From: a virus
Strand: one strand, 5' to 3'
IMG/VR virus record: IMGVR_UViG_3300037423_000603
Length of the DNA stretch: 64,000 nt
In this document: positions 10,352 to 43,224 of the stretch, one piece after another
Layout: each line of letters begins with the position of its first letter
Numbering within the stretch: position 1 is the stretch's first letter
Made by a program: the position numbers and the translations under genes
Notes under the pieces: model-generated
Told to the model about the DNA's origin: nothing
Database searches by the model: none
What the model saw: only the letters and a program-made list of their open reading frames with translations

Positions 10352-10467
10352 TTCTGTAGGTGATTTGCGGCGAACCACCCGCGAAGATGCGCTGCGACAG
10401 GGACAAGTCACGGCAGCCCCTACGAAACCCGATCAAATCGGGTAATCCGAAGTTTTGCCAAAATTTA

Positions 10468-10564
10468 GCGGCGCGCTAGGCGCGTAGCGGCTCCGGCGGT
10501 TGGACCTGATCACCCTTCTGCGTTGCTCGACAAGATGGCGCTGCAAATGCGTCACGCCGCTCCA
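10468..10564 (+). ncRNA. tRNA-like structured element, copy 1
   Basis: GCGGCG/CGCCGC acceptor-like stem, GGCGC-TGCAAAT-GCGTC T-arm, T-CCA end; identical to 43128..43224. Confidence 0.6.
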
Positions 10565-10589
10565 GTTTGCCGGAAAAATAAAGGTACCG

Positions 10590-11096
10590 ATGAAGGTTTC
10601 CCAAACCGGAAAGCGCTTCAAGGCCAAGGACGGCGAACCGTTAGAGTTTCTTCTTAAGGCTCTTCGGTTTGATGATCGCAACGCCTGCCTTATCTGGCCT
10701 TACAGCAAAAAGCAGGACGGCTATGGCCATCTCAAGGTCGATGGAAGATTTCACGTCGTCAGTCGATTGATATGTGAGGCGGTGCACGGCAAGTCTCCCG
10801 TCCAGTCGGCTGCCGTAATCCACGCAGCGCATTCATGCGGTAATTCCAGCTGCTGCAATCCGTGGCATTTGTCGTGGAAGACGCCGAAGGAAAACGAGGC
10901 TGATAAAAAAATCCACGGCACAAGAGCGGCCGGTCCAAGTGATGTGAATCCGTGGGCTCGTCTCACATATGAGCAAGCCCTAGCAATTAAGAATTCCCGT
11001 GGGCCAAGAAGGCCTATTGCAGAAAAATACGGGGTCTCGACCGGCACAGTCGGCGCGATCCGCGCAGGAAGATCTTGGGCGCATCTAGAAATTTAG
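10590..11096 (+). CDS. HNH (His-Me finger) endonuclease with C-terminal HTH
   Basis: HAAHSCGNSSCCNPWHL..TPKEN motif. Confidence 0.85.
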   Translation: MKVSQTGKRFKAKDGEPLEFLLKALRFDDRNACLIWPYSKKQDGYGHLKVDGRFHVVSRLICEAVHGKSPVQSAAVIHAAHSCGNSSCCNPWHLSWKTPKENEADKKIHGTRAAGPSDVNPWARLTYEQALAIKNSRGPRRPIAEKYGVSTGTVGAIRAGRSWAHLEI

Positions 11097-11111
11097 CCAA
11101 CCTTTTCAAAG

Positions 11112-11189
11112 TTTGCCGGTCTTCGGGCATCGCCTCAATAGGCATTGCCACGGTTAAGCGCTGGTCTATCGAGATCGCCGCCGGCAAAG
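11112..11189 (+). ncRNA. Putative structured RNA in the late leader
   Basis: TTTGCCGG...CCGGCAAA closing stem, C(TTCG)G loop, GGCA-GCCT-CAAT-AGGC-TGCC hairpin. Confidence 0.35.
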
Positions 11190-11207
11190 CCATATCGGAG
11201 CAACAGC

Positions 11208-11588
11208 ATGAAGCTTGACGAGTTCAAAGCTTGGTTTGAAGGGTTCACCGAGGACATGGACCGCGCACCCACAGCGAAGCAGTGGAAGCGCATCAAGGAG
11301 CGCGTGTCCGAGATCGACGGCGTGGCGATCAGCTACCCAGTCTACATCGACCGCTATGTGCGGCCCTTGTATCCGTACTATCAGGCCAACCCGATTTGGA
11401 ACGGCACCATCCTCTGCGGGGCAACGGCCCAAGGCATCGGCGCCAGCAACAACACCTCGTATACGGCTGCCGCCAACCAGATGGCGAGCCAGAGCTTTGA
11501 CATGCTGGCTGGGGACGGCGGCACAGTGTTCGACGCCACATCTGCCATGTTCGCGGCTGGCAAAGCAGAAGCGGCATCGTTCGCCTGA
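11208..11588 (+). CDS. Phage hypothetical protein
   Basis: MKLDEFKAWFEGF start after GGAG RBS. Confidence 0.7.
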   Translation: MKLDEFKAWFEGFTEDMDRAPTAKQWKRIKERVSEIDGVAISYPVYIDRYVRPLYPYYQANPIWNGTILCGATAQGIGASNNTSYTAAANQMASQSFDMLAGDGGTVFDATSAMFAAGKAEAASFA

Positions 11589-11765
11589 ATGCCTGAACCC
11601 CGCGCCATCACCGAAATAGCAGAGCGGGCCGCTGAGATGTTCCTCGCTGAGCAGGCGAGGCAGTTCCTTGACTGTGCTATCAACCTTGCGGCCACGAGCA
11701 TGCCGATGCCGGCGCTGATCAAGCTTCTCGAAGACCACGCCGAAATCTTGCGAGAATTCGGCTGA
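11589..11765 (+). CDS. Small hypothetical protein (58 aa)
   Basis: MPEPRAITEIAERAAE..., directly follows the upstream stop. Confidence 0.45.
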   Translation: MPEPRAITEIAERAAEMFLAEQARQFLDCAINLAATSMPMPALIKLLEDHAEILREFG

Positions 11766-11775
11766 GGGGATTCAC

Positions 11776-11976
11776 ATGTTCCCATACGAGTACTACATTA
11801 TGGGCATGAACACTTTCGACGAACTCTCAAGCGCAATTCGTTCAGGCTACAACAATCCCGACGCTCATCCCGCCGCCAAGGTCATCGGACAGCTTCTCGG
11901 CAAGTTCGCTTCCGGCATTGCCATTGGCGCCGGCATTGCTCTGGCGATGGCAATAGCGAGAGCTGGCGGGATGTGA
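11776..11976 (+). CDS. Small membrane protein
   Basis: RBS GAGGGG; C-terminal hydrophobic segment. Confidence 0.55.
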   Translation: MFPYEYYIMGMNTFDELSSAIRSGYNNPDAHPAAKVIGQLLGKFASGIAIGAGIALAMAIARAGGM

Positions 11977-12082
11977 AGTTCGCGGCTGTTCTCGCCGCAC
12001 TTCTACTCCTTGCTTCATGTGAAACACAGAACCCATGTCCATTCGATAGATGGCTGGTCGATCCTTATTGCAGGTAAGCACC

Positions 12083-12400
12083 ATGCCTGAAAACAACAGG
12101 CCGGCAACAACGTTCAAGCCCGGCAAGTCCGGCAATCCGAAGGGGCGGCCCAGGGGCGTCCCGAACAAGACCACGCAATTGCTCAAGGATGCCATCCTGC
12201 AGGCTGCTACTGCCGCAGGCGGTGGCGATATGGCGGTTTATCTCGAGAAGCAGGCTCTGGAGAACCCTGGGCCATTTATGAGCCTTCTTAGCAAGGTTCT
12301 GCCGATGCAAATCGCTGGCGACCCCGACAACCCGGTGAGGCATGAAGTCAGAACGCTCGCCGATTTCTACCGCGCCGACGCTAAACCCGGCTCTACGTGA
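12083..12400 (+). CDS. terS: Terminase small subunit
   Basis: FKPGKSGNPKGRPRG motif; directly upstream of terL. Confidence 0.8.
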   Translation: MPENNRPATTFKPGKSGNPKGRPRGVPNKTTQLLKDAILQAATAAGGGDMAVYLEKQALENPGPFMSLLSKVLPMQIAGDPDNPVRHEVRTLADFYRADAKPGST

Positions 12401-13751
12401 CTTCTGGACGGCCCCCGCCCGCAATCGGGTTCTATATGGCGGCCGATCGTCATCGAAATCGTGGGACGCGGCAGGGTTCGCCATCTTCCTGGCCTCGAAT
12501 TACCGCATTCGAGTCCTGTGCGCCCGCCAATTCCAGAACAAGATAGCGGAATCGGTCTACACGCTCCTTAAGATCCAGATCGAGCGGTTTGGACTAAGGG
12601 ACGAGTTTCATATCACCGACAACTCCATCCGGCATAAACTCACCGGGTCGGAGTTCATGTTTTATGGCCTCTGGCGCCACATTGACGAAATCAAGTCGCT
12701 AGAAGGGATCGACATCTGTTGGATCGAGGAAGCCCACAATCTCACACAAGAGCAGTGGGATATCCTGGAGCCAACGCTTAGGTCTGACGGTTCGCAATTC
12801 TGGGTCATCTTCAACCCCAGGCTTGTAACAGACTTCGTATATCGGCGCTTCGTCACCAACACGCCGCCAGATACCGTCAAGCGCAAGATAAACTACGACG
12901 AAAACCCATTCCTTTCGCAAACCATCCTGAAGGTCATTGAGGCCAAGCAGGCGGAAGATGAGGACGACTATCGACACATCTACCTTGGGGAGCCAAGGGA
13001 AGACGACGACGCGGTAATCATCAAGCGATCCTGGCTCCAGGCTGCGATCGACGCTCATGTGAAGCTGGGGCTCAAGCCTTCTGGCAAGAAGCGCATCGGC
13101 TTTGACGTTGCCGACAGTGGACAGGACAAGAACGCATCGGTTCTGGCGCATGGCATCGTTGCTCTCGCTGCCGACGAATGGAAGGGCAGGGAAGACGAGC
13201 TGCTGAAGTCCGCGTCTCGCGTACACGCCCTAGCTGTCAAGGAAGGCGCGGAGATCGACTACGACTGCATCGGCGTCGGAGCTTTCGCTGGCGCCCACTT
13301 CCAGGCGCTGAATGCCGAAAAAAAAGTCGCGGTAGCCTACCACAAGTTCAATGCAGGCGGCGAGGTCGTCAACAAGGGCATGCGGATCGATTTGAACGAT
13401 CCGAAGTCCCCCTTCAACGGCGATTTCTACGCCAACCTCAAGGCCCAATCGTGGTGGGAAGTCGCACGCCGGCTCCGCAACACTTTCAATGCGGTGACGA
13501 AAGGCCAGATCGCCGCGGAAGAGGACATGATCAGCATTTCGAGCGAGTGCGATCATCTGGACGATCTGATCGATGAGCTTTCAACGCCTCGCAAGGACTT
13601 TGATGCGAGGGGCAAAGCCAAGGTCGAGAGCAAGAAAGATCTGGCGGATCGTGAAATCCCGTCACCGAATAAGGCAGACGCTTTTGTGATGGCCTTTGCG
13701 CCCAGGCCGAAGGTAGCGACGGCCTATTCGGCACCGATGCATTGGGGTTGA
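12342..13751 (+). CDS. terL: Terminase large subunit (PBSX-like)
   Basis: YGGRSSSKS Walker A, WIEEA Walker B, IGFDVA nuclease Asp, SPNKADA. Confidence 0.95.
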   Translation: MKSERSPISTAPTLNPALRDFWTAPARNRVLYGGRSSSKSWDAAGFAIFLASNYRIRVLCARQFQNKIAESVYTLLKIQIERFGLRDEFHITDNSIRHKLTGSEFMFYGLWRHIDEIKSLEGIDICWIEEAHNLTQEQWDILEPTLRSDGSQFWVIFNPRLVTDFVYRRFVTNTPPDTVKRKINYDENPFLSQTILKVIEAKQAEDEDDYRHIYLGEPREDDDAVIIKRSWLQAAIDAHVKLGLKPSGKKRIGFDVADSGQDKNASVLAHGIVALAADEWKGREDELLKSASRVHALAVKEGAEIDYDCIGVGAFAGAHFQALNAEKKVAVAYHKFNAGGEVVNKGMRIDLNDPKSPFNGDFYANLKAQSWWEVARRLRNTFNAVTKGQIAAEEDMISISSECDHLDDLIDELSTPRKDFDARGKAKVESKKDLADREIPSPNKADAFVMAFAPRPKVATAYSAPMHWG

Positions 13752-13752
13752 G

Positions 13753-15219
13753 ATGACGACACAGACCGACCCTTCTTGCCCTTCTTGCGCCTATAAGGAG
13801 ATGGCGCCGCAGTGGTGCATGATAGATGATATCCTTGCCGGACCGTTGCGTGTCAGAAAGCAAGCAGAGATCTACCTGCCCAAATACGAAGCGGAATCGC
13901 TCGACGAATATAAGCGTCGTCTTGCCGCTGCACCGTGGCGTCCAGAGTTCGTGGATGCTCTTGAAAGCCTTGCCTCAAAGCCGTTCGGCAAAGAGGTGTC
14001 GCTGGACAAAGGCGCATCGACCCAGATCAAGGGATTGGCGGAGGATATCGACGGTCGCGGCAATAACCTTACGGCTTTTGCCCGGGATGTGTTCCGGGGC
14101 GGCATCGCCAAGGGCATGCACGGCATTCTGGTGGATTTTCCCTCAATCTCGCCCGGCGCTACCCTGGCTGACGAAAGGAAGATCGGCGCTCGCCCTTATT
14201 GGGTAAGCATCCGAGCCGACGACATTATCGCGCTCTATACCGAATTTGTCGGCAGCCGGGAGATCATCTCTCACGTTCGCATCCGAGAATGCACGACGGT
14301 TCGCGATGGCTTTGGCGAAACACAGGTAGAACGCATTCGTGTGTTCGAACCTGGTATGTGGCAGCTCTGGGAGCGCTACACGAACGAAAAGGGTGAAGAT
14401 GGCTACCAACTGGTGGCTGAAGGCGTGATGACGCTCCCTGACGTGCCGCTGGCGCTGTTCTGGACGGGAGAGCGTGAGGGGTCGCAGAAGGTCAAGCCTC
14501 CGCTGCTGGATCTGGCAGACATGCAGATCGAGCTTTACAGAAAGCTCTCCCGGCAGGATGAGATCGAGACCTATGCTGGCTCCCCCATGCTTCAGGGCGA
14601 GGGGATCGGGCCTCCTGGCCCACAGGACGAAAAGTTCGAGGTCGGCCCCAAGCGGATTCTGTTCGCCCCTCCTAGCCAGAACGGCACGACAAACACCAAA
14701 TGGTCATATATCTCGCCCGATGCGCAACTGCTGACGGAAATCAGGGAAGGCATCAAGACCGTCGTTGACGATATGCGCCGGCTCGCAATGCAACCTATGA
14801 CGCAGAGGTCTGGCACGGTAACGGCTACAGCGACCAGCGTTGAGGCGGCCAAGGCACATTCCGTTGTCGAGGCATGGGCTCTCGGCCTCAAGGATGTCTT
14901 GGAACAGGCATTCACCTTCACCTCGCAATGGCTAAACCAGGCCGAGACTGTTGAGGTTGATGTCAACACCGATTTCAGCGTTGAACAGAATGCACAGGCA
15001 CCCCTGACAGCATTGAAGGATGCCAGGGCATCAGGTGACCTCGGGCATAGGGATTATCTCTACGGCCTCCGCCGCTTCGGTGTCCTTCCTCCTGACGCGG
15101 ATATCGACAAGATAGCGGAAGACGCGGTGAACGAGCAGCCATCGCCAGATGACGAGGCTGCTATCGTAGCAGCGATGACGCCGCCTGCAGCGCAGACGAA
15201 ACAACCGACAGTCCAGTGA
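13753..15219 (+). CDS. Portal protein (DUF4055-like)
   Basis: [14 protein letters not shown]; follows terL; 488 aa. Confidence 0.88.
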
Positions 15220-15743
15220 TCCACGAAACCGCCTCGATCCATGTCAGGGCATGGGTTGATGAAAGCGTCTCGATAGGGGCAAGGACGAAGGTCTGGCAGT
15301 TCGCCTCGATCACAAGAGGAACGGTTTTAGGCGAGGATTGCAGCGTCTCGCCCCTCGCCATGCTGGACGGTTCGATCTACGGCGATCGGGCACTGATCAG
15401 TGCAGGATTCGCGGCGGGTGCAGGCTTCAAGGTCGGCTCTGACGTGTTCATTGGGCCGAATGTCACGCTTTGCAATGATATGTGGCCAAGGTCCGACAAG
15501 GAAGGCTATGACGACGCGGCGCTTCGCTCTGGCGAGCGGTTCGCTGTGATCATCGGCGACCGCTGCACGATCGGCGCCAATGCGGTGATCCTTCCGGGCG
15601 TTCGCATTGGGGATGGGTCGATTGTCGCGGCCGGCGCAGTCGTTACACGCTCGATTGCCCCTGGGCTGGTACTGAAGCGGAACGGCTACTGCGCTCCTCT
15701 GACGGATGATTGGAGGCGCGAACGTATGCGGTGGGCGGCTTGA
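15216..15743 (+). CDS. Left-handed beta-helix N-acetyltransferase (WbpD/FdtC-like amino-sugar acetyltransferase)
   Basis: Hexapeptide repeats, [35 protein letters not shown]. Confidence 0.85.
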
Positions 15744-16357
15744 TCTCCATCGCAACTTTGTTCTGGCAGGCAAACAACGCCTCTCGGGATTTCTCGCACT
15801 GCTATACCCCTAGCTGGGTCGAGAAGCTCTATCGCGGTTTCGCCCGCAACCTGCACATGGAATTCGAGTTCCTGTGCTTCGTCGATCGGCCCTATGAGTT
15901 CAACGAGCCGGAGATACAGCAGGTCCTCCTGATCGATCCGAATCCATCCTACGCAACCTGCATAGAGCCATACCGGCTCGGCGTTCCGATGATCCTGGTC
16001 GGGCTGGATACAATCGTCTTGGGCAATGTCGACGGGTTGGCTCGCTATTGCCTTGAGGAGGACGTGATTGCGTTGCCCCGCGATCCGTTCTTCCCATCTA
16101 GGGCTTGCAACGGCGTCGCTCTGGTTCCAGGCGAAAAGTGGTCTGTTTACGACAACTGGAACGGGGAAAACGACATGGAGTGGATGCGCAAGCAGCCGCA
16201 CCGCATGATCGACGACATCTTTCCCGGTCAGGTTGTGTCCTATAAAGGCCATGTGAAGAAAAACGGGTTGGGTGACGCCAGGATCGCTTATTTCCACGGC
16301 CAAGAGAAGCCTCATCAGCTCGGCCATTTGCCTTGGGTGAAGGAACATTGGCGGTAA
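15710..16357 (+). CDS. GT-A (GT8-like) glycosyltransferase
   Basis: [34 protein letters not shown]-terminal YFHGQEKPH. Confidence 0.7.
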
Positions 16358-16890
16358 CGCTCATTCTCGGCGGCGCCAAATGCGTCTGGGCCGATATTGA
16401 AGCAGCTCTGGATATCATGGAATTCGACGGCGTCGTCGCCTGCAACGATGTCGGGGTGCAATGGAAGGGTAATCTGGCGGGATGGGTTTCGCTGCACGCC
16501 GAGAAGCTGCCGAAATGGGTTACTGATCGCATTGCAAATGGCCTTTCGATGCCGGCCAGGATCGCAACCCACGACCAGAAGCAGGACAAGCCGTTCCAGT
16601 GGGAGCGGGTGCCTTACATGTTTCGCGGTCAGCGGCATTCTGGCTCTTCCGGGGAGTTCGCGGCCAAGTACGCACTGGAAGACCTGCGCTTCGACAAGGG
16701 CGTTCTCTGCGGCATTCCAATGCTGAATTCTGAGGCGCATTTCTTCAACCCGAAGATGTGGGAAGCGGCTCGACATTATCGATTGGGCTGGGCCGAGGCA
16801 AAGCCGGCGATTGGTGACAGGCTCCGATCGATGTCCGGATGGACGCGAGAGCAGTTCGGCGCCCCAACGATGGAATGGGCCAATGCGTGA
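16348..16890 (+). CDS. Sialyltransferase/MAF(DUF115)-like glycosyltransferase-fold protein 1
   Basis: LILGGAKCV, VVACND, SLHAEK, GSSGEFAAKYAL, VLCGIPM. Confidence 0.55.
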   Translation: MAVTLILGGAKCVWADIEAALDIMEFDGVVACNDVGVQWKGNLAGWVSLHAEKLPKWVTDRIANGLSMPARIATHDQKQDKPFQWERVPYMFRGQRHSGSSGEFAAKYALEDLRFDKGVLCGIPMLNSEAHFFNPKMWEAARHYRLGWAEAKPAIGDRLRSMSGWTREQFGAPTMEWANA

Positions 16891-17065
16891 TTACGTTGTC
16901 AGGCGCAGCGCCGATATTGACGACAACACGGATGCTGAGAACTATCTCTCGCGCACCGTATACGAGCCCGAAGAACTGATCGACATCGGCATTCTTGACG
17001 CGGACGGCAATAAGGTCATGGCGCGCAGAAGGCTGGACCCGATAGGCTTCATCCGCTGGAAATGA
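16883..17065 (+). CDS. Small phage hypothetical protein
   Basis: GILDADGNKV..PIGF; coupled on both sides. Confidence 0.6.
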   Translation: MRDYVVRRSADIDDNTDAENYLSRTVYEPEELIDIGILDADGNKVMARRRLDPIGFIRWK

Positions 17066-17583
17066 TCGCTCTCGTCCTCGGCGGCGCCTCTTGTGTCTGG
17101 GATGATGCTTTTGAGGCAATAGAGAAGTTCAACCCTGGACTGTTCGTCGCCTGTAACGACATAGGAACACGCTGGAGCGGCCCGCTCGATGCCTGGGTCA
17201 CGCTCCACCCGGAGAAGATGGCCAAATGGCGCTCAGAGCGGGCCGCACAGGGCTTCTCAGAGGCTTTCGAGCATGTGGCCGCAGAAGATGGCCATGCCGG
17301 AATAGACCGCGTTGCTGACTATCGCTGGCCGGGAATGACAGCTTCGGGATCGTCCGGGCTCTTTGCCGTCAAGATCGCCTTGGAGAAGGCGGATAAGGTA
17401 ATCCTGGCCGGCGTTCCGATGACGCCGACAGCGCACTTTTTCGACGATGCCCCTTGGGCGCATGTCAGATCATTCAACGAAGCATGGAAGACAATGCAGC
17501 CCTTTCTGAAGGGCAAGGTAGCCAGCATGTCGGGATGGACCCGCGAATTGCTCGGTGGACCGGAGAATTGGCTGGCGGGGTGA
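17062..17583 (+). CDS. Sialyltransferase/MAF(DUF115)-like glycosyltransferase-fold protein 2 (paralogue of 16348..16890)
   Basis: LVLGGASCV, FVACND, TLHPEK, GSSGLFAVKIAL, ILAGVPM, SMSGWTRE. Confidence 0.55.
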   Translation: MIALVLGGASCVWDDAFEAIEKFNPGLFVACNDIGTRWSGPLDAWVTLHPEKMAKWRSERAAQGFSEAFEHVAAEDGHAGIDRVADYRWPGMTASGSSGLFAVKIALEKADKVILAGVPMTPTAHFFDDAPWAHVRSFNEAWKTMQPFLKGKVASMSGWTRELLGGPENWLAG

Positions 17584-17633
17584 TCCTGCTGCCGTCAACG
17601 GGCGTGATGCCCACAATCAAGCGAGACGCTTAA

Positions 17634-18380: not shown

Positions 18381-18417
18381 TCGGGATCGTCAACCCGGCT
18401 CTTAAAGGAACCCTCCC

Positions 18418-19410: not shown

Positions 19411-19417
19411 TCAACAG

Positions 19418-19448
19418 AAGGGGCGGTCTTCGTGCCGCCCTTTCCTTT
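19418..19448 (+). terminator. Intrinsic terminator after the capsid gene
   Basis: AAGGGCGG-TCTTCGTG-CCGCCCTT then TCCTTTC. Confidence 0.7.
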
Positions 19449-19454
19449 CTCGGA

Positions 19455-20128: not shown

Positions 20129-20181
20129 TCATGATCTTCGTGCGCGCCGCTGACCAGGCGCTGGTGTGGGGCGTTTGACCG

Positions 20182-21027: not shown

Positions 21028-21030
21028 ACC

Positions 21031-22614
21031 ATGCGCCGCTTGCCCCAATCCACCGCCTACACGGTGATGCTGAAGCTGTTCCTGTCGAGCGATCACGTCT
21101 CGGCCGCGACCGGAAAGACCGTCGCCATCAAGATCAGCAAGGCCGGCGGTGCCTTCGCCGATCCGAACGCCGGCGCCTCGAACGCGACGGAAGTCTCGAA
21201 CGGCTGGTACAAGTTCGCGCTCGACACCACCGACACCAATACGCTGGGCGATCTGGTGGTGCGCGGCACGGCGGCGAGCTGCGACGATGCCGAGCAGGTC
21301 TGCCAGGTGGTCAAGGCGACCAATGGCGGCCTGACCGCGCTGCCGGATGCGGTTGCCGGCGCCAGTGGCGGCCTGCCGCTGTCAGTGGATGCCTCCGGCC
21401 GCGTCGATGTGCTCAAGATCAACGGAACGTCGCAGACGGCGCGCGATGTCGGCGCAAGCGTGTTGCTCTCTGCCGGCACAGGAACCGGTCAGCTCGACTT
21501 TACCTCGGGCGTCGTCAAGGCGAACCTGGCGCAGATCCTCGGCACAGCGCTGACCGAGACGGCTGGCCAGATCGCGGCCGGCTTCAAGAAATTCTTCAAC
21601 ATCGCCACGCCTGCCGCGACGATGGATCATCTGGTGCTGGTCGATACTGTGACGACCTATACCGGCAACACGCCGCAGACGGGCGATGCCTTTGCCCGCA
21701 TCGGTGCCGCTGGCGCCGGCCTCACCGCGCTTGGCGACACGCGTATCGCGCATCTCGATGCCGATGTCTCGACGCGCTCGACCTATGCCGGTGCCGACAC
21801 TTCGGGCACCACGACATTGCTCTCGCGCCTCACCTCGACACGCGCTGGCCTGCTCGACCATCTCGACGCGGACATATCGAGCCGCATGGCGACGTTCAGC
21901 TATACCGCGCCGCTGGATGCCGCTGGCACGCGCGCCGCGCTCGGCATGGCTTCGGCCAATCTGGACACGCAGATCGCGGCGCTTGCGACGGCGGCGGCCC
22001 TTTCCGACCTCAGCGACGGCATCTCGGCGAGTTTCACCGCGCTGCAAAGCCATGGCGACAGCGCCTGGGCCACGGCGACCGGCTTCTCGACGCTTGGCTC
22101 AAGCGATGTCTCCGCCGCCGTCTGGGATGTCGCCATGGCAGATCATCTCGGTGCCGGCACTACGGGCGACGCGATTTTCCAGGCCGGCGTCCATGCCCCA
22201 TCGGCCGACAGCAAGGCCGACACGATCCTCGCCGACATCGCGGCGCTGAATAATCTCTCGGCCGCCGATGTGAAGACGCAGGCCGACCAGGCGCTCGCCG
22301 ACGCTGGCGTGACAACGGCGCGCATGAGCCACCTTGACGCCGATGTCTCGAGCCGGGCCTCTCAGCCGAGCGTCGATGGCTTGGCGATCCCGACCGCGGC
22401 AGATAACGCCGATGCTGTGCTCGCCGCCACCTATGAAGGCTCCGAGACGGTGCAGGATCACTTCCGCCTGGCGCGCGCCGCGCTCTATGGCAAGGCGAAT
22501 GGTCTTGGCGGATCGACGGTGCATTTCCGCGACGCAGCCGACAGCAAGAACCGGCTGACGGCCAGTGTCGATAGCGATGGCAACCGCGCCGCCGTGACGA
22601 CGGACGCGAGCTGA
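21031..22614 (+). CDS. Ala/Thr/Asp-rich fibre-like virion protein with internal repeats
   Basis: Repeats HLDADVSTR / HLDADISSR / HLDADVSSR. Confidence 0.7.
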   Translation: MRRLPQSTAYTVMLKLFLSSDHVSAATGKTVAIKISKAGGAFADPNAGASNATEVSNGWYKFALDTTDTNTLGDLVVRGTAASCDDAEQVCQVVKATNGGLTALPDAVAGASGGLPLSVDASGRVDVLKINGTSQTARDVGASVLLSAGTGTGQLDFTSGVVKANLAQILGTALTETAGQIAAGFKKFFNIATPAATMDHLVLVDTVTTYTGNTPQTGDAFARIGAAGAGLTALGDTRIAHLDADVSTRSTYAGADTSGTTTLLSRLTSTRAGLLDHLDADISSRMATFSYTAPLDAAGTRAALGMASANLDTQIAALATAAALSDLSDGISASFTALQSHGDSAWATATGFSTLGSSDVSAAVWDVAMADHLGAGTTGDAIFQAGVHAPSADSKADTILADIAALNNLSAADVKTQADQALADAGVTTARMSHLDADVSSRASQPSVDGLAIPTAADNADAVLAATYEGSETVQDHFRLARAALYGKANGLGGSTVHFRDAADSKNRLTASVDSDGNRAAVTTDAS

Positions 22615-35469: not shown

Positions 35470-35473
35470 TCTC

Positions 35474-35983
35474 ATGGCAGACAACATCGATGTGACGCCA
35501 GGCACCGGCAAAACCATTTCGGCAGATGACATCGGCGGCGGCCTCCTCGTCCAGCGCGTCAAGGCGACATGGGGTCCAGACGGCACCGCCAATGATGTGG
35601 ACACCGCCTCCGGAAAGGCGCTTCCGGTGGCACTGCGCGGCAGCGACGGCACCGACCGCTCAAGCTCGCTCAAGGCGCTCACCGATCTCGGCGCCGGAGA
35701 ATATGAGACGGTGGCAGCATCGGTCACCGCGCAAACTCTAGGCGCTACCGGTGCCGCCGGCGACTTCATCAGTCATATCCTGGTGATTCCGGCCTCGCTC
35801 GATGCTGGAGCTGTCGCGCTCTTGGATGGCGCGACCTCGATCACGGTTTTTGCCGGCGGCACCGCCAGCCTTTCCAATCTGGTTCCTTTCGTCATCCCGC
35901 TCGGGATGATCAGCGTATCAGGTGCATGGAAGATTACCACCGGCGCTGATGTGAGCTGCATCGGCGTGGGCAATTTCCTATGA
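35474..35983 (+). CDS. Tail-associated hypothetical protein
   Basis: MADNIDVTPGTGKTISADDI.. motif; position. Confidence 0.7.
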   Translation: MADNIDVTPGTGKTISADDIGGGLLVQRVKATWGPDGTANDVDTASGKALPVALRGSDGTDRSSSLKALTDLGAGEYETVAASVTAQTLGATGAAGDFISHILVIPASLDAGAVALLDGATSITVFAGGTASLSNLVPFVIPLGMISVSGAWKITTGADVSCIGVGNFL

Positions 35984-36657
35984 TGTTCTATCTTCGCAAG
36001 GGCTTCTGGTCTTCGGTCGCAGCGCTCTCGCCGCCGTCCGGCTTTGTCCCGCCGGCTGGCTTCGATTGGAGCCTCGATTATCTAAGCGAGATCTACACAA
36101 ACAACGGCTCCCCGGTGGCGATTGCCGACATCATCGACAAGCCGTCGCGCGTCGGGGCTAGCGGCCTCGAAATCCTCGATAACGATGTTGATGGCGTCGT
36201 AGATTCCCTCGGCGATTACCTGGCCGCCTATCAGACGATGAATTGGACCACCACTATCGAGTGGGAGGAACTGACCACCGACGGTGCCACCTATCTGCTC
36301 TATCTCGTCGATGCGGGCCTAAGCCAGTCTTTGGTGATAGAACGCAGCACGGCGTTCACCGGGTTGCGCGTCGACGCCCATGAGTCGAGCTTTGTCATCC
36401 GCAATGTTGAGATCGACACCTCGCATGGGCCGGGTGTGCATAAAATTGCGGTTACACGCACCAATGACCGGCTCAGTTTCTCATGCGATGGCAGCTCGGT
36501 CGTTAACGACACGATGGCAAACACCACGATGAATCCGATGGCCACCGCGTCGTTCGGCGGCGATCCTAATGATCAATCCTACAATGGAACATTCATCCGA
36601 AAGGTAACGCTGACCGCGCCCGTCGACGATGCCGTTCTGCCAACGCTCTCGGCTTAA
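35980..36657 (+). CDS. Putative receptor-binding protein with LamG/concanavalin-like beta-sandwich
   Basis: HKIAVTR..LSFSCDGSSV, FIRKVT, typical lectin-like pattern. Confidence 0.55.
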   Translation: MMFYLRKGFWSSVAALSPPSGFVPPAGFDWSLDYLSEIYTNNGSPVAIADIIDKPSRVGASGLEILDNDVDGVVDSLGDYLAAYQTMNWTTTIEWEELTTDGATYLLYLVDAGLSQSLVIERSTAFTGLRVDAHESSFVIRNVEIDTSHGPGVHKIAVTRTNDRLSFSCDGSSVVNDTMANTTMNPMATASFGGDPNDQSYNGTFIRKVTLTAPVDDAVLPTLSA

Positions 36658-36956
36658 TTGCCGCAGTCCTTGATCGCCTTGGCAAAGGCCTCAAGCGATG
36701 CCTTGTAGACACGCAGCGCCGATTCCGCGCCGATCCTGGCGTCGTCGAGATCGCCGGCTTCATCCTTGGCGCTGTCCGGCATGACAGCCATGGCGGCGCG
36801 GAAGGCGTCGCCCTTCATGGTGAGAAGGGTTTCCTCGAGCCTATCCGCCGCCGAGGCCGCAGATTCGCTCAAGGCGTTGCAGCCGACCGGCGACATTTCC
36901 TCCGCCGAAGCCGGCAGGACAAAGGTGATCGCGCAAATGGTCAACGCCTTCATCAT
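36654..36956 (-). CDS. Small secreted helical protein (moron)
   Basis: Signal peptide MMKALTICAITFVLPASA; two Cys; coupled to tadG. Confidence 0.7.
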   Translation of the reverse strand: MMKALTICAITFVLPASAEEMSPVGCNALSESAASAADRLEETLLTMKGDAFRAAMAVMPDSAKDEAGDLDDARIGAESALRVYKASLEAFAKAIKDCGN

Positions 36957-38431
36957 CGGTAAAGCTGCGCCTCATTGCGAACGAATTGGTCAAGCGTTCC
37001 TTGGCCGCCAGCGGAGATATCGACTAACTCCACCATGACGGAGGCATCGTCCGCCGCCGACATGACGGGCTCAGTGATGAAGAAGCTGCCGAACGCCGCG
37101 ACGGGAACGCCAACGCTGTGGCCGGAGAGATCGTTACCTGCGGCTTCCAGCGCATTGCAGTTGAGGATGGCGCCATAAAGCAGCCGCCGGTCGATGGACG
37201 TGATAGCAGATGGGCAGGCGTTGGCCGGCGTCCCTGTTTCGCCGCCAGTTGATGCATGATTCACCAATCCGGCGGACTGCTCGTACTTGTAGACCTCGTA
37301 TCTGGTGGGCTTCGTCGACGACCAACTCTGCGGCATCGGAATGGAGGACCCGAAATTGGTGCTCCAATATGTGCTTAGCGGCCAATTCCCGTCACCCATT
37401 CGCCCGTTCAGGTACGGTTGGGATTGATCTCTCGGCAGCCCCATGTTGCCGGCCAGCCCGAAGGTCAATTGGTTCATTGCCGGGCATTGGCCGGCGCCAC
37501 CGGAAGTCTTCTTGGCGCCCTTCCTGACATTGGCGGCCGGGCCATATTCGGCGGTATTGAAACCGCCGCCTGTGGCACGGATGCCGAACCGGACATTGAA
37601 GGCATCCTGCACAGGCCCAGCGTTCTGGCCGGTCTTGGTGTCGACCCCCTTTTGCCCGTAGCAGCCTCTGGGTTTCGATGTCGCAATGGTCTCTGCGAGG
37701 CCCTTGGCGCCGTTGCCGACGCCATCCGGCGGTTGCAGGAAACCGAAATTGCCTGGGCCAGCGGCCGCACCGTTGCCGACCTTGCGGACCTCGATCAGAC
37801 GGCGCCGAAGGTTGGGATCGGCAGCCGCCTCTTGAAGGGTGTGGTTGGGGTCATTCTCATATGGATTACAGATGAATATCGGAGTGAAATCGCAGACGGA
37901 TGTCTGAAAGCCAGCAACAGCCTGCGGGCGGATATCCATCGTGTCGTTGCCAGCATTAAAGCCGACTGGAAAGATGGCCTCGAAGCCGCCGGCACCATCC
38001 GCGTTGACAGTCACCTCGGCGAAGCTCACCGCCTCGGGGTCAGTGCTGGCCCAATTTACGCCGTTTGCATCCACGCCGTTAGCATCAAGCCCGATATCGT
38101 CGCTGGCGGGGATGCCGGTCAGATAGGTCACGGTCACGTCGGCCAAGGCGATCTGGTGACTGCCCGACGTGGAAAACAGCGTTCTGTTGGCGATGAGATT
38201 GGTGATGGCCCGATCAGCCCTCGTGATGCTGTCGGGGCGCCCATCCAGTTCACCGGCGCCCGCTAGAGCAAGCGCGTCAATGCCCTTCTGCAGATCGTTG
38301 TGAAGCCCGTTCGCGCGACTCAGGTCGACGGCCAGAACCGCAAAGCCGATCAGTGCCGGCAGCATGATCGCCACCAAGATCATCGCTACGCCGCGCTGAT
38401 CCTTCCAGAATTTACGCAAGACGCGAAGCAT
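36953..38431 (-). CDS. tadG: TadG-like Flp/Tad pilus protein (moron)
   Basis: DQRGVAMILVAIMLPALIGFAVLAVDLS..LQKGIDALALAGA pilin-like N-terminus; Cys-rich body; RBS GGAGG. Confidence 0.85.
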   Translation of the reverse strand: MLRVLRKFWKDQRGVAMILVAIMLPALIGFAVLAVDLSRANGLHNDLQKGIDALALAGAGELDGRPDSITRADRAITNLIANRTLFSTSGSHQIALADVTVTYLTGIPASDDIGLDANGVDANGVNWASTDPEAVSFAEVTVNADGAGGFEAIFPVGFNAGNDTMDIRPQAVAGFQTSVCDFTPIFICNPYENDPNHTLQEAAADPNLRRRLIEVRKVGNGAAAGPGNFGFLQPPDGVGNGAKGLAETIATSKPRGCYGQKGVDTKTGQNAGPVQDAFNVRFGIRATGGGFNTAEYGPAANVRKGAKKTSGGAGQCPAMNQLTFGLAGNMGLPRDQSQPYLNGRMGDGNWPLSTYWSTNFGSSIPMPQSWSSTKPTRYEVYKYEQSAGLVNHASTGGETGTPANACPSAITSIDRRLLYGAILNCNALEAAGNDLSGHSVGVPVAAFGSFFITEPVMSAADDASVMVELVDISAGGQGTLDQFVRNEAQLYR

Positions 38432-38553
38432 CGCAGCGCCCTCCAACCCCTATAAGCCGCATGCATTTTCCCCGTGCCTCAAGCATAGGACCGGCAACTC
38501 GGACGGGCAAGAGCTTCGTTAGCAACTGGTTAAAGCCCTCTGGAATCAACGCC

Positions 38554-38760
38554 ATGCCCACCAAGAAGCGCAAGACTGTCGGCCGCAGGCTGCGCTTCCA
38601 CGCCGCATGGCTCGGCCTTCTGATGCTCATCCTCGATGCGATAAGCCAAATGTGGTTCGCCTTCCAAGAGTGGCTGCAGATATCGCCTGAAGTCTACACG
38701 GCGCTTGGCGTGGCGCTCTTCATCGCCTCTGGCATCGGCCACCTCTACCGGAACGATTAG
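38554..38760 (+). CDS. Putative holin
   Basis: Basic N-terminus and two TM helices directly before the endolysin. Confidence 0.6.
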   Translation: MPTKKRKTVGRRLRFHAAWLGLLMLILDAISQMWFAFQEWLQISPEVYTALGVALFIASGIGHLYRND

Positions 38761-38772
38761 GAGACATCTCCC

Positions 38773-39354
38773 ATGCTTGCAAAGCTACGGGCGAGCGGTC
38801 GCGCTCGGGCCGCGATTGCCGCTGTCCTCGCCATGGTTGGCGTCACAGTCGGCGGCGTCCGCTACATCAACGGCACGCCGGACGATGTGGTGCTGGCCTC
38901 AACCTATCTGGTTGAGCCGTGGGAAGGCGAAGTGCTTCGCGCCTACCTCGATCGCATCCCTAAGCCGCCAGTCTGGACCATCTGCGCGGGCGATACCCAG
39001 AACGTAAAGCCTGGCATGGTCGAGACGCCGAAGGGCTGCAAAGAACGCCTTGAGCGCCGCATGACGAAGGAATTTCGGCCGGCGCTAGTGTCCTGCATTC
39101 CCGGCTTCAACAAAGCTCCGATTTCGTGGCGAGCGATGATGGATAGCCTCGCCTGGAACATCGGCTCCAGCGCCGCCTGCAATTCGCGCGCGGCGGCCTT
39201 CGGCATCAAGCAGATGTGGATTGCCAGTTGCAATGCCGCGACGGCGTTCAATAAGTCGGGCGGCAGGGTGATCATCGGCTTGGTGAACAGGCGCACCAAT
39301 GGCGATGCGACGCGCATAGGCGAGGGCGAGTTGTGCCTTTCGGGAGCGCTCTGA
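38773..39354 (+). CDS. GH24 lysozyme endolysin with N-terminal SAR-like helix
   Basis: WEG..YLD..WTICAGDT catalytic pattern, LAWNIG, GLVNRR. Confidence 0.9.
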   Translation: MLAKLRASGRARAAIAAVLAMVGVTVGGVRYINGTPDDVVLASTYLVEPWEGEVLRAYLDRIPKPPVWTICAGDTQNVKPGMVETPKGCKERLERRMTKEFRPALVSCIPGFNKAPISWRAMMDSLAWNIGSSAACNSRAAAFGIKQMWIASCNAATAFNKSGGRVIIGLVNRRTNGDATRIGEGELCLSGAL

Positions 39355-39470
39355 TGGAAAACCTCAAAGCCGTCTTCGCTCTCATCATAGACGAGTACGC
39401 CACTGAGATCGGCATCTTCCTTGCCGGCATCGCGGCTCTGATCGGACTGGTGCTGTTATGGCCACTCTGA
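39354..39470 (+). CDS. Small membrane peptide (38 aa)
   Basis: Coupled to the endolysin stop; single TM helix. Confidence 0.45.
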   Translation: MENLKAVFALIIDEYATEIGIFLAGIAALIGLVLLWPL

Positions 39471-39841
39471 TCCTTTGGCTCATGGGCAAGACCGGACTCG
39501 GCAAGCTTCTCGCCTCGCTCATCGTCTATGCCGCCATAATCGGCGCGATTGCTCTCGGCATTTGGTGGTGGAGCGATCATCTCTACAATAACGGCATCGC
39601 CCACGAGCGCCAGGCTTGGGAGAAACAGCGCGAGAAGGACCTAGCCCAGCAGGAAGCCGACAAGCGCAAGACGCAGGCCGAGATAGACCGCATAGCGGCA
39701 GAACATCAGCTCGACGCCCAGAGGCGCAAGGACGAGCAAGCCGACGCCGATCTGAAGAAGGCGCAAGACGCCTCGGCCACCAAGAAGAACATATGCGTCC
39801 CGCGCGAAGTCGGCCGCGCCTTGAACAGGGTGGGGCGCTGA
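39458..39841 (+). CDS. Inner-membrane spanin (Rz-like)
   Basis: N-terminal TM helix followed by coiled coil. Confidence 0.7.
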   Translation: MATLILWLMGKTGLGKLLASLIVYAAIIGAIALGIWWWSDHLYNNGIAHERQAWEKQREKDLAQQEADKRKTQAEIDRIAAEHQLDAQRRKDEQADADLKKAQDASATKKNICVPREVGRALNRVGR

Positions 39842-39842
39842 T

Positions 39843-40127
39843 ATGAAGAAACTTGCGCTCCTCTCTGCTTTCCTCATCTGCTCTGGCTTCACGGGCTGCA
39901 TGACGGTCGATCGTCACATGCCGTTGACGCCTACGCCCGCCCACATTCCCGATAGCCTGAAGAAGCCCTGCGGCGAACTCTCCAACATTCCCGACCGCGA
40001 TCTGACGCAGGCGGAAAGCAATCCACTCTGGGCAAATGACCGCCGCGTCGGCGGATGTGCCCTTCGGCAAAATAGGGCACTCATCAAAGCTGCAGAAGCC
40101 CTTGAGAAACAGGGGCAGAAGCGATGA
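39843..40127 (+). CDS. Outer-membrane spanin lipoprotein (Rz1-like)
   Basis: Lipobox FTGC; Pro-rich. Confidence 0.7.
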   Translation: MKKLALLSAFLICSGFTGCMTVDRHMPLTPTPAHIPDSLKKPCGELSNIPDRDLTQAESNPLWANDRRVGGCALRQNRALIKAAEALEKQGQKR

Positions 40128-40354
40128 CGGAGCACGAACTGAAGAAGATCGTAGCGGAAGCCGTTTCCGAAACGCTCCTGCAGCTCGGCATCGACGCCAG
40201 CGATCCCGTCGAAATGCAGAAGGATATGGCGCATTTGCGCTCTTGGCGCGAATCCGTCGCGACGATCAAGCAGCAAAGCTTGGTGACTGCTGTTGGCATC
40301 GTCGTGGCCGGCGCGCTCGGGCTGCTGTGGCTCGCCTTCAGAGGCTCTCCGTAA
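40124..40354 (+). CDS. Phage membrane protein of the lysis region
   Basis: LGIDASDPVEMQKDMAHLRSWR; C-terminal TM helix. Confidence 0.7.
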   Translation: MTEHELKKIVAEAVSETLLQLGIDASDPVEMQKDMAHLRSWRESVATIKQQSLVTAVGIVVAGALGLLWLAFRGSP

Positions 40355-40385
40355 GACTACCTCCTTACATCGAAAGGATATCGCC

Positions 40386-40568
40386 GTGGCCCAATTCTCT
40401 TGGCGCTTCGTCGTTTGGTTTTGCGTCCTTCTTTCCGTGATGATGCTGTCCTTCATCGTCGCGGTTTTCATGACTGTTCGCGTCCATGCGGCAGATCGCT
40501 ATGCCTGCACCCAATCCGGCGCCGGCATGACCACTTACTGCCACGTTCCTTCCTCCCACAAAGGCTAA
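40386..40568 (+). CDS. Small membrane/secreted protein
   Basis: GTG start; hydrophobic N-terminal half; two Cys. Confidence 0.5.
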   Translation: MAQFSWRFVVWFCVLLSVMMLSFIVAVFMTVRVHAADRYACTQSGAGMTTYCHVPSSHKG

Positions 40569-40572
40569 ATCC

Positions 40573-41325
40573 ATGTCTCGCATCGTCCTCAAGCCGGCCC
40601 TGTGGCTGGCCGCCTTGCTTTGTGCTGCCATCTTCTCTGCGGTTGGCATTGCGCATGCCGCCGACAAAGCCGAACTGGAAAAGCTTCAGCGCGAAGTCCT
40701 CGGCGTCACGGTCCAGCTCAATGGCAATTGCAGCGGCACTGTCATCTATTCGAACCGTGATAAGGTATCGGGCGAAGTCACCACGCTTATCCTCTCGGCA
40801 GGCCATTGCGCCATAGACAAGGACGCAGACCAGCGCATCGAGTTCCCGGTCTACCAGGACAACGAAGTGGTCAAGAGGGACGCCTATGTCGGCAAGATTC
40901 TGGGTGTCTACTTCAACGCCGATCTGTCGCTCTGGAAGCTGAAGGACAAGCAGACTTTTTTCCCCAATGTAGCCAAGCTGGCGCCGGAGAAACCTACCTT
41001 GCTTATGGGCGAGGATGTGTGGACTGCGGGTTATCCGCTCGGCGGAGTGCTGACGATCACCAAAGGCCTGTTCGGTTCCAAAGAGACGAACGACTTCGCG
41101 AAGCCTGGGAGCGTCTATTACAGGGCCACGCCAGACATCGCGCCTGGTTCATCGGGCGGAGCGCTCTATCACAAAAATGATGCCGGCGATTACGAGCTGC
41201 TCGGCGTCACGACTGCCATGGCCCGCGGCTTCCCATATTTTGCCATGTACACCCCAATCTCCGATATCTACGCCTATCTGAAGGTTGCACAGCCGGACAT
41301 CGTGATCCCGCCTGCAAAGCCCTGA
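40573..41325 (+). CDS. Secreted trypsin-like serine protease
   Basis: Signal peptide; SAGHC (His), DLSL (Asp), PGSSGG (Ser). Confidence 0.9.
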   Translation: MSRIVLKPALWLAALLCAAIFSAVGIAHAADKAELEKLQREVLGVTVQLNGNCSGTVIYSNRDKVSGEVTTLILSAGHCAIDKDADQRIEFPVYQDNEVVKRDAYVGKILGVYFNADLSLWKLKDKQTFFPNVAKLAPEKPTLLMGEDVWTAGYPLGGVLTITKGLFGSKETNDFAKPGSVYYRATPDIAPGSSGGALYHKNDAGDYELLGVTTAMARGFPYFAMYTPISDIYAYLKVAQPDIVIPPAKP

Positions 41326-41401
41326 TTTCCACTCTCGCGACGCCCGTCTGGCCACTCCAGTGGAAAACTACCCTCCCTCAACAGCATAGGGACCAAACCG
41401 C

Positions 41402-42427
41402 ATGGGAATTCCCACGGATGATGAGGAGTTGCGCGCTATGCAGCGCGCGGTCGCGGAGCACGGCTCCAGAGCCGCCGCTGCCAGAGCGCTTGGAATACCC
41501 GTCACCACGCTGAAAGGCCGCCTCGGCGCAGCGGAGCGTGCCGGCATTAGGGCAGAGAAGGACGAGGCAATTGAGCTACCCGAGTTCGTTCACGGCGACG
41601 AAGAGGAGCCAATTGATGAATTGCTGGCGCGGTTCCGTAAGGCTCACGAGCGGAAGCAAAAAGCCATCGACGCGCGAACCTGGTTTCCGCTAAAAGTCAA
41701 GGAAGAGAAGCCCTACGGCATCCTCTGGTTTGGTGACCCGCACCTTGGGCCTCATTGTAATTGGGCGCTCCTCGAAAGCCATATTGCCATTGCACGGCAA
41801 CCCGGCGTTTATGGCGGGAACATAGGAGACACAACCGACAATTGGCCTTGGACCGGCCGCCTTGCCCGCCTCTGGGCAGAGAACGACATTTCCCACAAGA
41901 CAGAACGCCGGCTGGCAACATGGTTCATGATGGAAGCCGGCATCAAGTGGCTTCTGTGGCTTGGGGGGAACCATGACGAATGGAACGGCGGCACCGAGTT
42001 CTACAAGATGCTCGGTGCCTCGCAAGTCCCGGTGATCGACTGGCGGGCACAATTCACCCTCTGTCACAAGAACGGCTCACAGACACGCATAGATGCAGCA
42101 CACGGGCGCAAGGGCTCATCGATCTACAATCCCGCACACGGCACGCTGAGGGACGCTAAATTCGGCGAGGAGGCGGCACTTTTCATCACGGGTCACATTC
42201 ATTCCTTCGGCCTGTTTGATATCGAGTTCCCCGAGAAGAAGACGCAAACCTGGCTGGCGCAAATCTCTGGCTACAAAATGGGCGATCGGCACGCGCTGGT
42301 GAATGGTTATGCGCAAGCCAATCGCGGTGCTGCCGTCCTGTCTGTGATCGATCCGACATCGGGCAAGATCCAATGCTTCGCGGATGTCGAGGAGGGCGCC
42401 GAGTTCTTGGCGTTCAAGCGTCGATGA
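41402..42427 (+). CDS. HTH plus calcineurin-like metallophosphoesterase
   Basis: AAARALGIPVTTLKGRL HTH; GDPH, GD, GNHD, H, GHIH motifs. Confidence 0.85.
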   Translation: MGIPTDDEELRAMQRAVAEHGSRAAAARALGIPVTTLKGRLGAAERAGIRAEKDEAIELPEFVHGDEEEPIDELLARFRKAHERKQKAIDARTWFPLKVKEEKPYGILWFGDPHLGPHCNWALLESHIAIARQPGVYGGNIGDTTDNWPWTGRLARLWAENDISHKTERRLATWFMMEAGIKWLLWLGGNHDEWNGGTEFYKMLGASQVPVIDWRAQFTLCHKNGSQTRIDAAHGRKGSSIYNPAHGTLRDAKFGEEAALFITGHIHSFGLFDIEFPEKKTQTWLAQISGYKMGDRHALVNGYAQANRGAAVLSVIDPTSGKIQCFADVEEGAEFLAFKRR

Positions 42428-42591
42428 CCAGAAAAGCCTATATCGCCGTTGATATGCGCGGCGACCAACCGATCTACGAGCTTATCATTGATGGCGTGAA
42501 GCAGTGCGAGCTGAGCGCTATCGAGACGCTGGAACTTGGCCTTAATGCATCGAGCGCGGTGAGATGGGCGATACCTCTTCGGAAGAAATAA
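42424..42591 (+). CDS. Small hypothetical protein
   Basis: ATGA overlap with the phosphoesterase stop. Confidence 0.55.
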   Translation: MTRKAYIAVDMRGDQPIYELIIDGVKQCELSAIETLELGLNASSAVRWAIPLRKK

Positions 42592-42758
42592 CCGCCACGT
42601 TTGACCAGATAGACGAGTTTGCCCGCGCTCTTTTCCACAAGGCTGACGCAACCGGCATCTGGGCAGCGCAGGATGAGATGACGCGGCTGTACTGGCGCAA
42701 GGAAGCCGTCCGCCGACTCCAGCAGGCGCGTTATAAGGAAATGGCAGAACGCACTTAA
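42564..42758 (+). CDS. Small hypothetical protein
   Basis: Overlapping coupled ORF. Confidence 0.5.
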   Translation: MGDTSSEEITATFDQIDEFARALFHKADATGIWAAQDEMTRLYWRKEAVRRLQQARYKEMAERT

Positions 42759-43000
42759 CCGGCGGGAGGCGGCTCTACGCGCTCCATCTTCGCGCCGTCC
42801 CAAATGTGTACTGGCATGTCGGGGTGGCAGATCACCAGTTTCCCGTTGAAATAGGTAGCTGCCGCACCGCCATTGCGCTGAAGCTCTGCTGCGAGCGCTG
42901 CCTCAGCCTTCTCCGCCCGCTCTTGCCACTCCGCTGCGATCTCTTTCCATTCGTTGGCACTCAGGCCGAGTCCATCAAACAGTTTTGCGCCATATACCAT
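42755..43000 (-). CDS. Small hypothetical protein
   Basis: Convergent ORF with short coiled coil. Confidence 0.5.
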   Translation of the reverse strand: MVYGAKLFDGLGLSANEWKEIAAEWQERAEKAEAALAAELQRNGGAAATYFNGKLVICHPDMPVHIWDGAKMERVEPPPAG

Positions 43001-43010
43001 TTGATTATCC

Positions 43011-43039
43011 TAGCATTTCTGCGGGATTCGCGCTATAAA
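43011..43039 (+). promoter_or_regulatory. Putative promoter for the ncRNA unit
   Basis: TAGCAT-N17-TATAAA. Confidence 0.5.
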
Positions 43040-43127
43040 AATCGCGGCAGGGCGACGACAGGAACCGGGCGGCCCGAATTCGCGACAGAACAGTCCAACC
43101 TGTGACAGGTCGGAGAGACGACACAAA

Positions 43128-43224
43128 GCGGCGCGCTAGGCGCGTAGCGGCTCCGGCGGTTGGACCTGATCACCCTTCTGCGTTGCTCGACAAGATGGCG
43201 CTGCAAATGCGTCACGCCGCTCCA
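43128..43224 (+). ncRNA. tRNA-like structured element, copy 2 (stand-alone unit)
   Basis: Identical to 10468..10564; lies between a promoter and a terminator with no ORF. Confidence 0.62.

Follow-up and report, generated by a model that had tools for sequence, protein, structure and literature searches.

A repeated element in a tandem prophage region

The 64,000-nucleotide stretch of viral DNA analysed here (IMG/VR record IMGVR_UViG_3300037423_000603, hereafter the window) holds two related prophages in tandem; its DNA also occurs in soil and rhizosphere metagenomes. Within it a 98-nucleotide (nt) element, which we call E, occurs twice as direct repeats 32.66 kb apart, once at the head of the late operon of the first prophage (prophage A), following a gene for a NusG paralogue, and once among accessory genes beyond the late region. 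As an earlier reading of the bare DNA letters (the sequence-only reading) had reported, the two copies are 100% identical and the sequence match ends abruptly on both sides. The borders given in that reading also hold: a single base, A, precedes GCGGCG at the 5' end, and CGCCGC-T-CCA forms the 3' end. An exact repeat of 98 nt far exceeds the chance expectation in 64 kb.

10467 to 10564, plus strand: E copy 1, exact repeat, in the variable slot of the late-operon leader, between box L (TTTGCCAAAAT) and box R (GTTTGCCGG)
43127 to 43224, plus strand: E copy 2, exact repeat, in the accessory arm, with flanks unrelated to those of copy 1

The window contains no third full or long copy, the longest other match being 15 nt. 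Outside it, E was met in one other phage only, represented by two IMG/VR contigs (L067/L068), where it occupies the identical leader slot without the HNH gene that follows copy 1. BLAST searches of phage and plasmid collections returned no homologue, and exact-word scans found none in 185,579 species genomes, none in metagenome contigs and, among viral contigs, only L067/L068. In 401 Hyphomicrobiales genomes BLAST yielded no convincing copy, only short, chance-like pieces in coding regions.

E has identical borders wherever it occurs, in both window copies and in the slot of L067/L068, and thus behaves as a discrete unit in three contexts; all copies are oriented with late transcription. The L067/L068 version differs from the window copy by five substitutions, all within the first 40 nt, leaving the last 58 nt invariant. 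E is also more conserved than the sequence around it. The two phages that carry it are 95% identical over E, as against approximately 70% over the NusG gene and 71-86% over the downstream leader. A coding function was considered, since one reading frame is open, but rejected, as the changes in the variant are non-synonymous.

The late-operon leader and its variable slot

Copy 1 starts 149 nt past the stop codon of the NusG-family gene and ends 17 nt before the HNH gene, beyond which come the terminase and portal genes; its placement after the NusG paralogue at the head of the late operon, already claimed from the letters, is therefore confirmed. The features of this region are as follows.

9680 to 10318, plus strand: phage NusG paralogue, a late antiterminator candidate (PF02357, E-value 5.7e-9; phrog_25909 'transcription antiterminator', E-value 2e-37)
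10318 to 10466, plus strand: late promoter and leader, with ATTGCA-N17-CTAGGT, the invariant core TTTCTGTAGGTGATTTG, a GGGAC/GTC hairpin and box L
10565 to 11120, plus strand: HNH endonuclease cassette, gene at 10581-11096 (PF13392 and PHROG HNH), with a 9-bp direct repeat GTTTGCCGG at both flanks
11112 to 11207, plus strand: leader box R, structured, about 70 nt, TTTGCCGG...CCGGCAAA, preceding the first late gene (ATG at 11208)

A protein-guided search for related NusG paralogues retrieved loci on one metagenome-assembled genome, about 30 IMG/VR contigs and 12 metagenome contigs. Most of these loci share a unit that starts at the stop codon of the paralogue and consists of a promoter (CTTGCr-N17-CTATAT), an invariant core (TTTCTGyAGG(G)TGATTTG), the GGGAC/GTC hairpin, box L (TTTGCCAAAAT), a variable slot, box R (GTTTGCCGG ... 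CCGGCAAA, about 70 nt) and the first late gene. An nhmmer profile of the leaders of 12 relatives matches 10318-10417 (E-value 1.1e-14) and nowhere else in the window. Box R is conserved in L097, L099, L102, L106, L109 and others, and its first bases are the 9-bp repeat that flanks the HNH cassette; the cassette itself is missing from L097/L109 and is present without E in L101. Separately, box R, closed by TTTGCCGG/CCGGCAAA, could be a structured RNA or a cos-related site.

The content of the slot differs from locus to locus:

L097, L102, L115: 4-5 nt
L099, L106, L107, L114, L116, L117: closed hairpins of 34-52 nt
L112: a closed structure of 118 nt
L101: an HNH gene
L001: a canonical tRNA-Met
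L067/L068: E
Window: E plus the HNH cassette

Every insert found in the slot folds as a closed stem structure. Genes for tRNA also lie directly 3' of the NusG paralogue in other loci (Met in L124; Pro/Arg/Gln in L105/L129; Thr in L138), while the more distant relatives L133-L137 have a terminator-like hairpin after the paralogue. E is absent from all but one of approximately 20 other distinct paralogue-carrying loci, among them a CheckV-complete relative of 45,373 bp (G403). Because the slot content varies and the complete G403 lacks E, E is optional and dispensable to the leader module and is not a partner of the NusG paralogue. The slot insert of G403 is single-copy, which rules out duplication of the slot insert as a general design of these phages.

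The second copy and its surroundings

Copy 2 stands alone, 3.9 kb from the integrase, where 288 bp separate two accessory genes of the minus strand. It had been described as lying between a promoter and a strong terminator followed by pyrimidine tracts. The strong terminator and the CU-rich tracts, which lie between copy 2 and the terminator, are present, but a consensus scan called no sigma-70 promoter upstream of copy 2; what is found there is a promoter-like motif.

43009 to 43042, strand ambiguous: promoter-like motif CCTAGCATTTCT-N9-GCGCTATAAAAAT, 35 bp, conserved in G403 at 21345-21380 (L093 1345-1380)
43254 to 43285, plus strand: intrinsic terminator, 30 nt past copy 2; stem at 43254-43277, 9 bp with 8 GC pairs, then TCTTTTT

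The terminator has no U run on the minus strand and works for the plus strand only, and plus-strand transcription through E is therefore implied. The motif could serve either strand, since it lies right against the start codon (ATG, 43000) of a minus-strand gene, 42755-43000. It is common to the window and G403, and in each it lies in an intergenic gap of about 280 bp bounded by minus-strand accessory genes; the gap sequences are otherwise unrelated. Downstream of the motif, the window has E, the CU-rich tracts and the terminator, and G403 a different body and a long C-rich tract. The motif was not found in 10 other related records. By eye the flank upstream of copy 2 resembles the late leader, a similarity rejected by the nhmmer leader profile, which does not match there. 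A relative of the downstream gene, of 102 amino acids, has a terminator of its own and no E.

Relation to tRNA and to known RNA families

The tRNA-like nature that had been ascribed to E draws on several traits that are identical in both variants: a 6-bp acceptor-like stem, a C.A mismatch, U73, CCA and a near-canonical loop, UGCAAAU, one base removed from the T-loop UUCAAAU of the tRNA-Met in L001. None of the detection methods supports it. At default settings ARAGORN reports no tRNA or tmRNA gene in the window. E matches none of the described RNA families searched (Rfam 15, gathering score), and the Rfam tRNA family is not matched at E<=10 in either 109 nt around copy 1 or 501 nt around copy 2; a hit of the kind that, by the sequence-only reading, would remove the novelty (a known Rfam family or a canonical tRNA) came from neither search.

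When ARAGORN was relaxed to 70-80% of threshold it made noise-level calls only, one per strand. Because one of these was a tRNA-Arg(TCT), and because relatives of the window's integrase adjoin tRNA-Arg(TCT) genes, a custom covariance model was built from eight such genes adjoining related integrases and run against the window with filters off at E<=10. E was not among the matches, and its derivation from tRNA-Arg(TCT), the target of this integrase family, is not supported by the model. A canonical tRNA was rejected on the same searches and for want of U8 and of a U33/R37 loop; a tmRNA, one-piece or permuted, was rejected because ARAGORN reports none and position 3-70 is G-C, so that there is no G3.U70.

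The natural variant bears on the same question. The only anticodon-like stem of E contains a C.C mismatch and is broken further by changes in L067, where a C-to-A change also disrupts the proposed D-arm hairpin; none of the variant's changes supports a cloverleaf. The proposed T-arm and D-arm hairpins can indeed be read in the letters; folding, however, predicts them with low pair probabilities, 0.14 and 0.03 for the window copy and 0.00 for the variant, and forcing the acceptor plus T-arm costs 1.4 kcal/mol in the window copy and 7.8 kcal/mol in the variant. E is no detectable tRNA or tRNA derivative.

Predicted fold

In both variants the terminal stem GCGGCG/CGCCGC (6-7 bp, GC) is predicted with a pair probability of 0.8-1.0. 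Inside it lie two internally palindromic arms that are also able to pair with each other, and in a rod-like fold several of the variant's substituted bases gain Watson-Crick partners in the invariant 3' half; the middle 60 nt have no conserved fold. The predicted fold is strand-asymmetric because it uses G.U pairs, scoring 7.5 kcal/mol better on the plus strand (-36.9 kcal/mol) than on the minus strand (-29.4 kcal/mol), an asymmetry that mildly favours a plus-strand RNA over a DNA palindrome.

Prophage layout and the attachment site

The early-right region of prophage A (1-10318) ends in GcrA-like, helix-turn-helix (HTH) and NusG-family genes. Its late genes comprise the HNH gene (10581-11096), large terminase (12342), portal (13753), tail genes and lysis genes (38773-39841), and beyond them an accessory arm carries a trypsin-like peptidase, a metallophosphatase, small minus-strand open reading frames (ORFs) and an IS605-type TnpB. 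The accessory genes at 40573-42427, past the lysis module, encode a trypsin-like peptidase (PF13365) and an HTH-metallophosphatase-like protein, and may form a moron or defence pair. The IS605-family TnpB (OrfB_IS605, Cas12f1-like TNB, HTH; 44778-45920, minus strand) lies between copy 2 and the integrase; no TnpA or Y1 transposase was found among the ORFs neighbouring TnpB and E. Prophage B begins at the tyrosine integrase and has an early-right region (54412-64000) that is related, in mosaic fashion, to 88-8110.

46937 to 48180, minus strand: tyrosine integrase of the second prophage (gene at 47101-48180; phrog_1, E-value 9e-44) plus 164 bp past its 3' end

The segment 46937-48377, which includes the integrase and these 164 bp, is 88% identical at the nucleotide level to G403, a genome that also matches the window on both sides of the copy 2 region. 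Relatives of the integrase (45-55% identity; loci L004-L018) lie 30-60 bp from the 3' end of a tRNA-Arg(TCT) gene, and no tRNA-Arg fragment is detectable at the tandem junction (46937-47100). Because the 164 bp past the integrase are conserved with G403, the attachment (att) junction of the tandem prophages likely adjoins the integrase, at 46937-47100, and not E.

Interpretation and rival explanations

We tentatively favour, at somewhat less than an even chance, a reading in which E is a discrete, structured RNA module of the plus strand, an optional cargo of the leader that is expressed, as we infer, from two places. The setting would be a group of temperate phages that employ a NusG paralogue and have Hyphomicrobiales-type hosts; in their late leader a hypervariable slot appears to take up interchangeable closed RNA structures, genuine tRNA genes included. 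Copy 1 would be made within the abundant late leader transcript. Copy 2 would be the main part of a short plus-strand RNA that stops at the terminator behind it and that either has a promoter nearby or is the last portion of late read-through. E, an RNA of about 97 nt with a UCCA tail, could then be excised at the foot of its terminal stem, in the manner of tRNAs and other substrates that combine a stem with NCCA, or could stay on as a stem-loop that protects; in both cases the phage would obtain one small RNA, or one RNA end, in two expression regimes. Such an excision is plausible, since RNase P of bacteria recognises a stem with a 3' NCCA and also cleaves non-tRNA phage RNAs such as the P1/P7 C4 precursor (PMC4919922).

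The best antisense site to E is a 15-nt stretch at 54602-54616, perfectly complementary to E positions 82-96 in a minus-strand transcript, with a 13-nt counterpart in the other prophage at 278-290. It covers the GTGA stop/start overlap of two small early-left ORFs, 54606-54833 and 54391-54609. A complement of 15 nt is only marginally unusual, being equalled in 8 of 300 shuffles of E, and no further antisense target was found in the searched parts of the other E-bearing phage. A more ambitious proposal would make E the founder of a new class of tRNA-slot RNA, CCA-ended and with an acceptor stem, lacking an anticodon, excised by host tRNA-processing enzymes, supplied also from a separate gene, and acting in trans, for example as a decoy for tRNA-targeting defence or, via its 3' 15 nt, as a regulator of the early-left operon; we regard this as quite improbable.

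Several observations weigh against the structured-RNA reading that we favour. The predicted fold of the window copy (-36.9 kcal/mol) is no more stable than those of shuffled sequences (z = +0.66), and that of the L067 variant (-41.2 kcal/mol) reaches only z = -1.5. Only two sequence variants of E are available and their predicted folds differ in register, for which reason the internal fold is not established. RNase P prefers U(-1)/RCCA (PMC4919922), unlike E, which has A at position -1 and U as discriminator. Relatives with a nearly empty slot also have CCA before box R, and the CCA of E may, from this comparison, be leader sequence rather than a tRNA-like end. Finally, E is rare, being known from three contigs in all the collections searched, and the complete G403 genome does without it.

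The main rival, which we judge unlikely, holds that E is selfish or accidental DNA without function, either a mobile hairpin resembling a miniature inverted-repeat transposable element (MITE) or a REPIN, or filler captured in the repair of a double-strand break at a recombination hotspot beside the homing-type HNH gene. Its presence/absence polymorphism with exact borders, the 7-bp terminal inverted repeat AGCGGCG/CGCCGCT, the two palindromic arms able to pair together, its rarity and dispensability, an IS605-family TnpB 1.5 kb from copy 2, and a slot that is a hotspot for cassettes, where a 9-bp repeat borders the HNH insertion, would all suit such an origin. The three insertion sites, however, show neither a target-site duplication nor a common target sequence, and no Y1 transposase lies among the neighbouring ORFs. 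Nor is there a multi-copy family: E has two copies in the window and one in another phage, with no copy in phage and plasmid collections or, by exact words, in the 185,579 species genomes and none convincing in the 401 genomes, and the longest other match in the window, at 15 nt, is of a length equalled in 8 of 300 shuffles. A selfish hairpin would also have to be reconciled with an orientation that is always that of transcription, a G.U-dependent and strand-asymmetric fold, and a conservation exceeding that of the flanks. A decidedly smaller chance attaches to a tRNA mimic, an acceptor/T-arm minihelix with CCA that would be matured by RNase P and RNase Z/E and would serve as a decoy for anticodon nucleases or another tRNA-binding factor. 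Such a mimic would account for the occupation of a tRNA slot, the 6-bp acceptor-like stem with UCCA, the loop so close to the T-loop of the L001 tRNA-Met and an identity between copies that spans exactly the would-be mature RNA. It is opposed by the failure of ARAGORN (none by default and, when relaxed, noise-level calls on both strands), of Rfam (no tRNA at E<=10 in 109 nt) and of the tRNA-Arg(TCT) model to detect E, by the low probability and energetic cost of the T-arm, by the absence of U8, of a U33/R37 loop and of G3.U70, and by a variant that breaks both the D-arm and the anticodon-like stem.

Two further explanations are very improbable. The first, also raised by the sequence-only reading, makes E a cis-acting antitermination or loading signal for the NusG paralogue, in the manner of put or ops. 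E does sit in the late leader just past the regulator gene, but the distribution largely refutes this idea: L097-L099, L101 and L102, one of these genomes being a complete 45-kb phage, carry paralogues 80-86% identical, with the same promoter and leader, and lack E, and copy 2 has no leader context. The invariant core beside the promoter (TTTCTGyAGG(G)TGATTTG; within 10318-10417 in the window and in about 20 related loci) is a better candidate than E for the site at which the paralogue loads. The other would see in E an attL/attR-type scar, or an assembly artefact at a repeat, as direct repeats 32.66 kb apart in a tandem double lysogen and an integrase whose relatives target a tRNA 3' end might suggest. 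That the repeat brackets the late region, as had been noted, is true as geometry, but the bracketing is not integration-related: phage DNA flanks both copies on both sides, the interval between them holds late, lysis and accessory genes only, the 164 bp by the integrase conserved with G403 place att near 47000, and G403 has no E, so that E was rejected as the att core. An artefact is further opposed by the recurrence of the copy 1 context (leader, E, box R) in independent IMG/VR contigs and by a Logan contig from another sample: its listed length and gene positions, the only basis here, suggest that it spans the GcrA-like and NusG genes and some 360 nt more, which would take it across E and into the HNH gene.

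Implications

Should E prove to be a functional RNA, this phage group would show a defined leader position at which tRNA genes are interchangeable, as cargo, with structured RNAs of other kinds; it would offer a natural system in which to study roles of phage 'tRNA-like' RNAs beyond decoding, and the second expression site would argue for a trans-acting product. Should E be no more than a hairpin that was captured or is selfish, the useful outcome is a map of the conserved late promoter and leader with its insertion hotspot. Such a map aids the annotation of many rhizobial prophages, and it singles out the invariant core, not E, as the place where the NusG paralogue likely acts.

Comparison with known systems

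Among mobile DNA, repetitive extragenic palindromic sequences (REP), their REPIN forms and MITEs resemble E in being about 100 bp long and intergenic, in having two inverted, internally palindromic arms and in being present or absent with sharp borders. E differs from them in lacking a multi-copy family, a REP-associated tyrosine transposase (RAYT) or other transposase and a target duplication, and in the strand asymmetry of its predicted fold. The lambda PR'-qut-tR' region (6S RNA), RfaH-ops and the LoaP leader combine a regulator gene, a strong promoter, a conserved promoter-proximal element and a structured leader ahead of the late genes much as the leader described here does; the terminator-like hairpins of the distant relatives L133-L137 fit the same pattern. 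This likeness concerns the leader and not E, which is dispensable and has no U tract.

Small phage RNAs provide further parallels. RNase P cuts the C4 antisense RNA of P1/P7 and the CI RNA of P4 out of operon leaders; both RNAs control immunity, and their complementary targets have been mapped within the operon that encodes them. E, as read here, would share with them the nature of a short structured RNA within a phage leader, in which a terminal stem and a CCA-like 3' end could guide RNase P; the only candidate target of E, by comparison, is a 15-nt match of marginal significance, and its processing would follow by analogy. The 'species 1 and 2' RNAs of phage T4 (rnaC, rnaD) are stable non-tRNA RNAs with tRNA-like ends encoded in a tRNA gene cluster, and share with E the property of standing among, or in place of, phage tRNA genes. 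Phage and sequence are unrelated, and the T4 species have been seen as RNA, whereas E is known from DNA alone.

Further counterparts are the leader tRNAs of the same phage group (Met in L001/L124, Pro/Arg/Gln in L105/L129 and Thr in L138). E, at 97 nt, differs from these in having no cloverleaf or anticodon loop, in being missed by tRNA detectors and in a middle 60 nt without a conserved fold. It resembles them in its position after the NusG paralogue, which in L001 is the same slot past box L, in its orientation, in a closed terminal stem ending in NCCA, and in being optional cargo.

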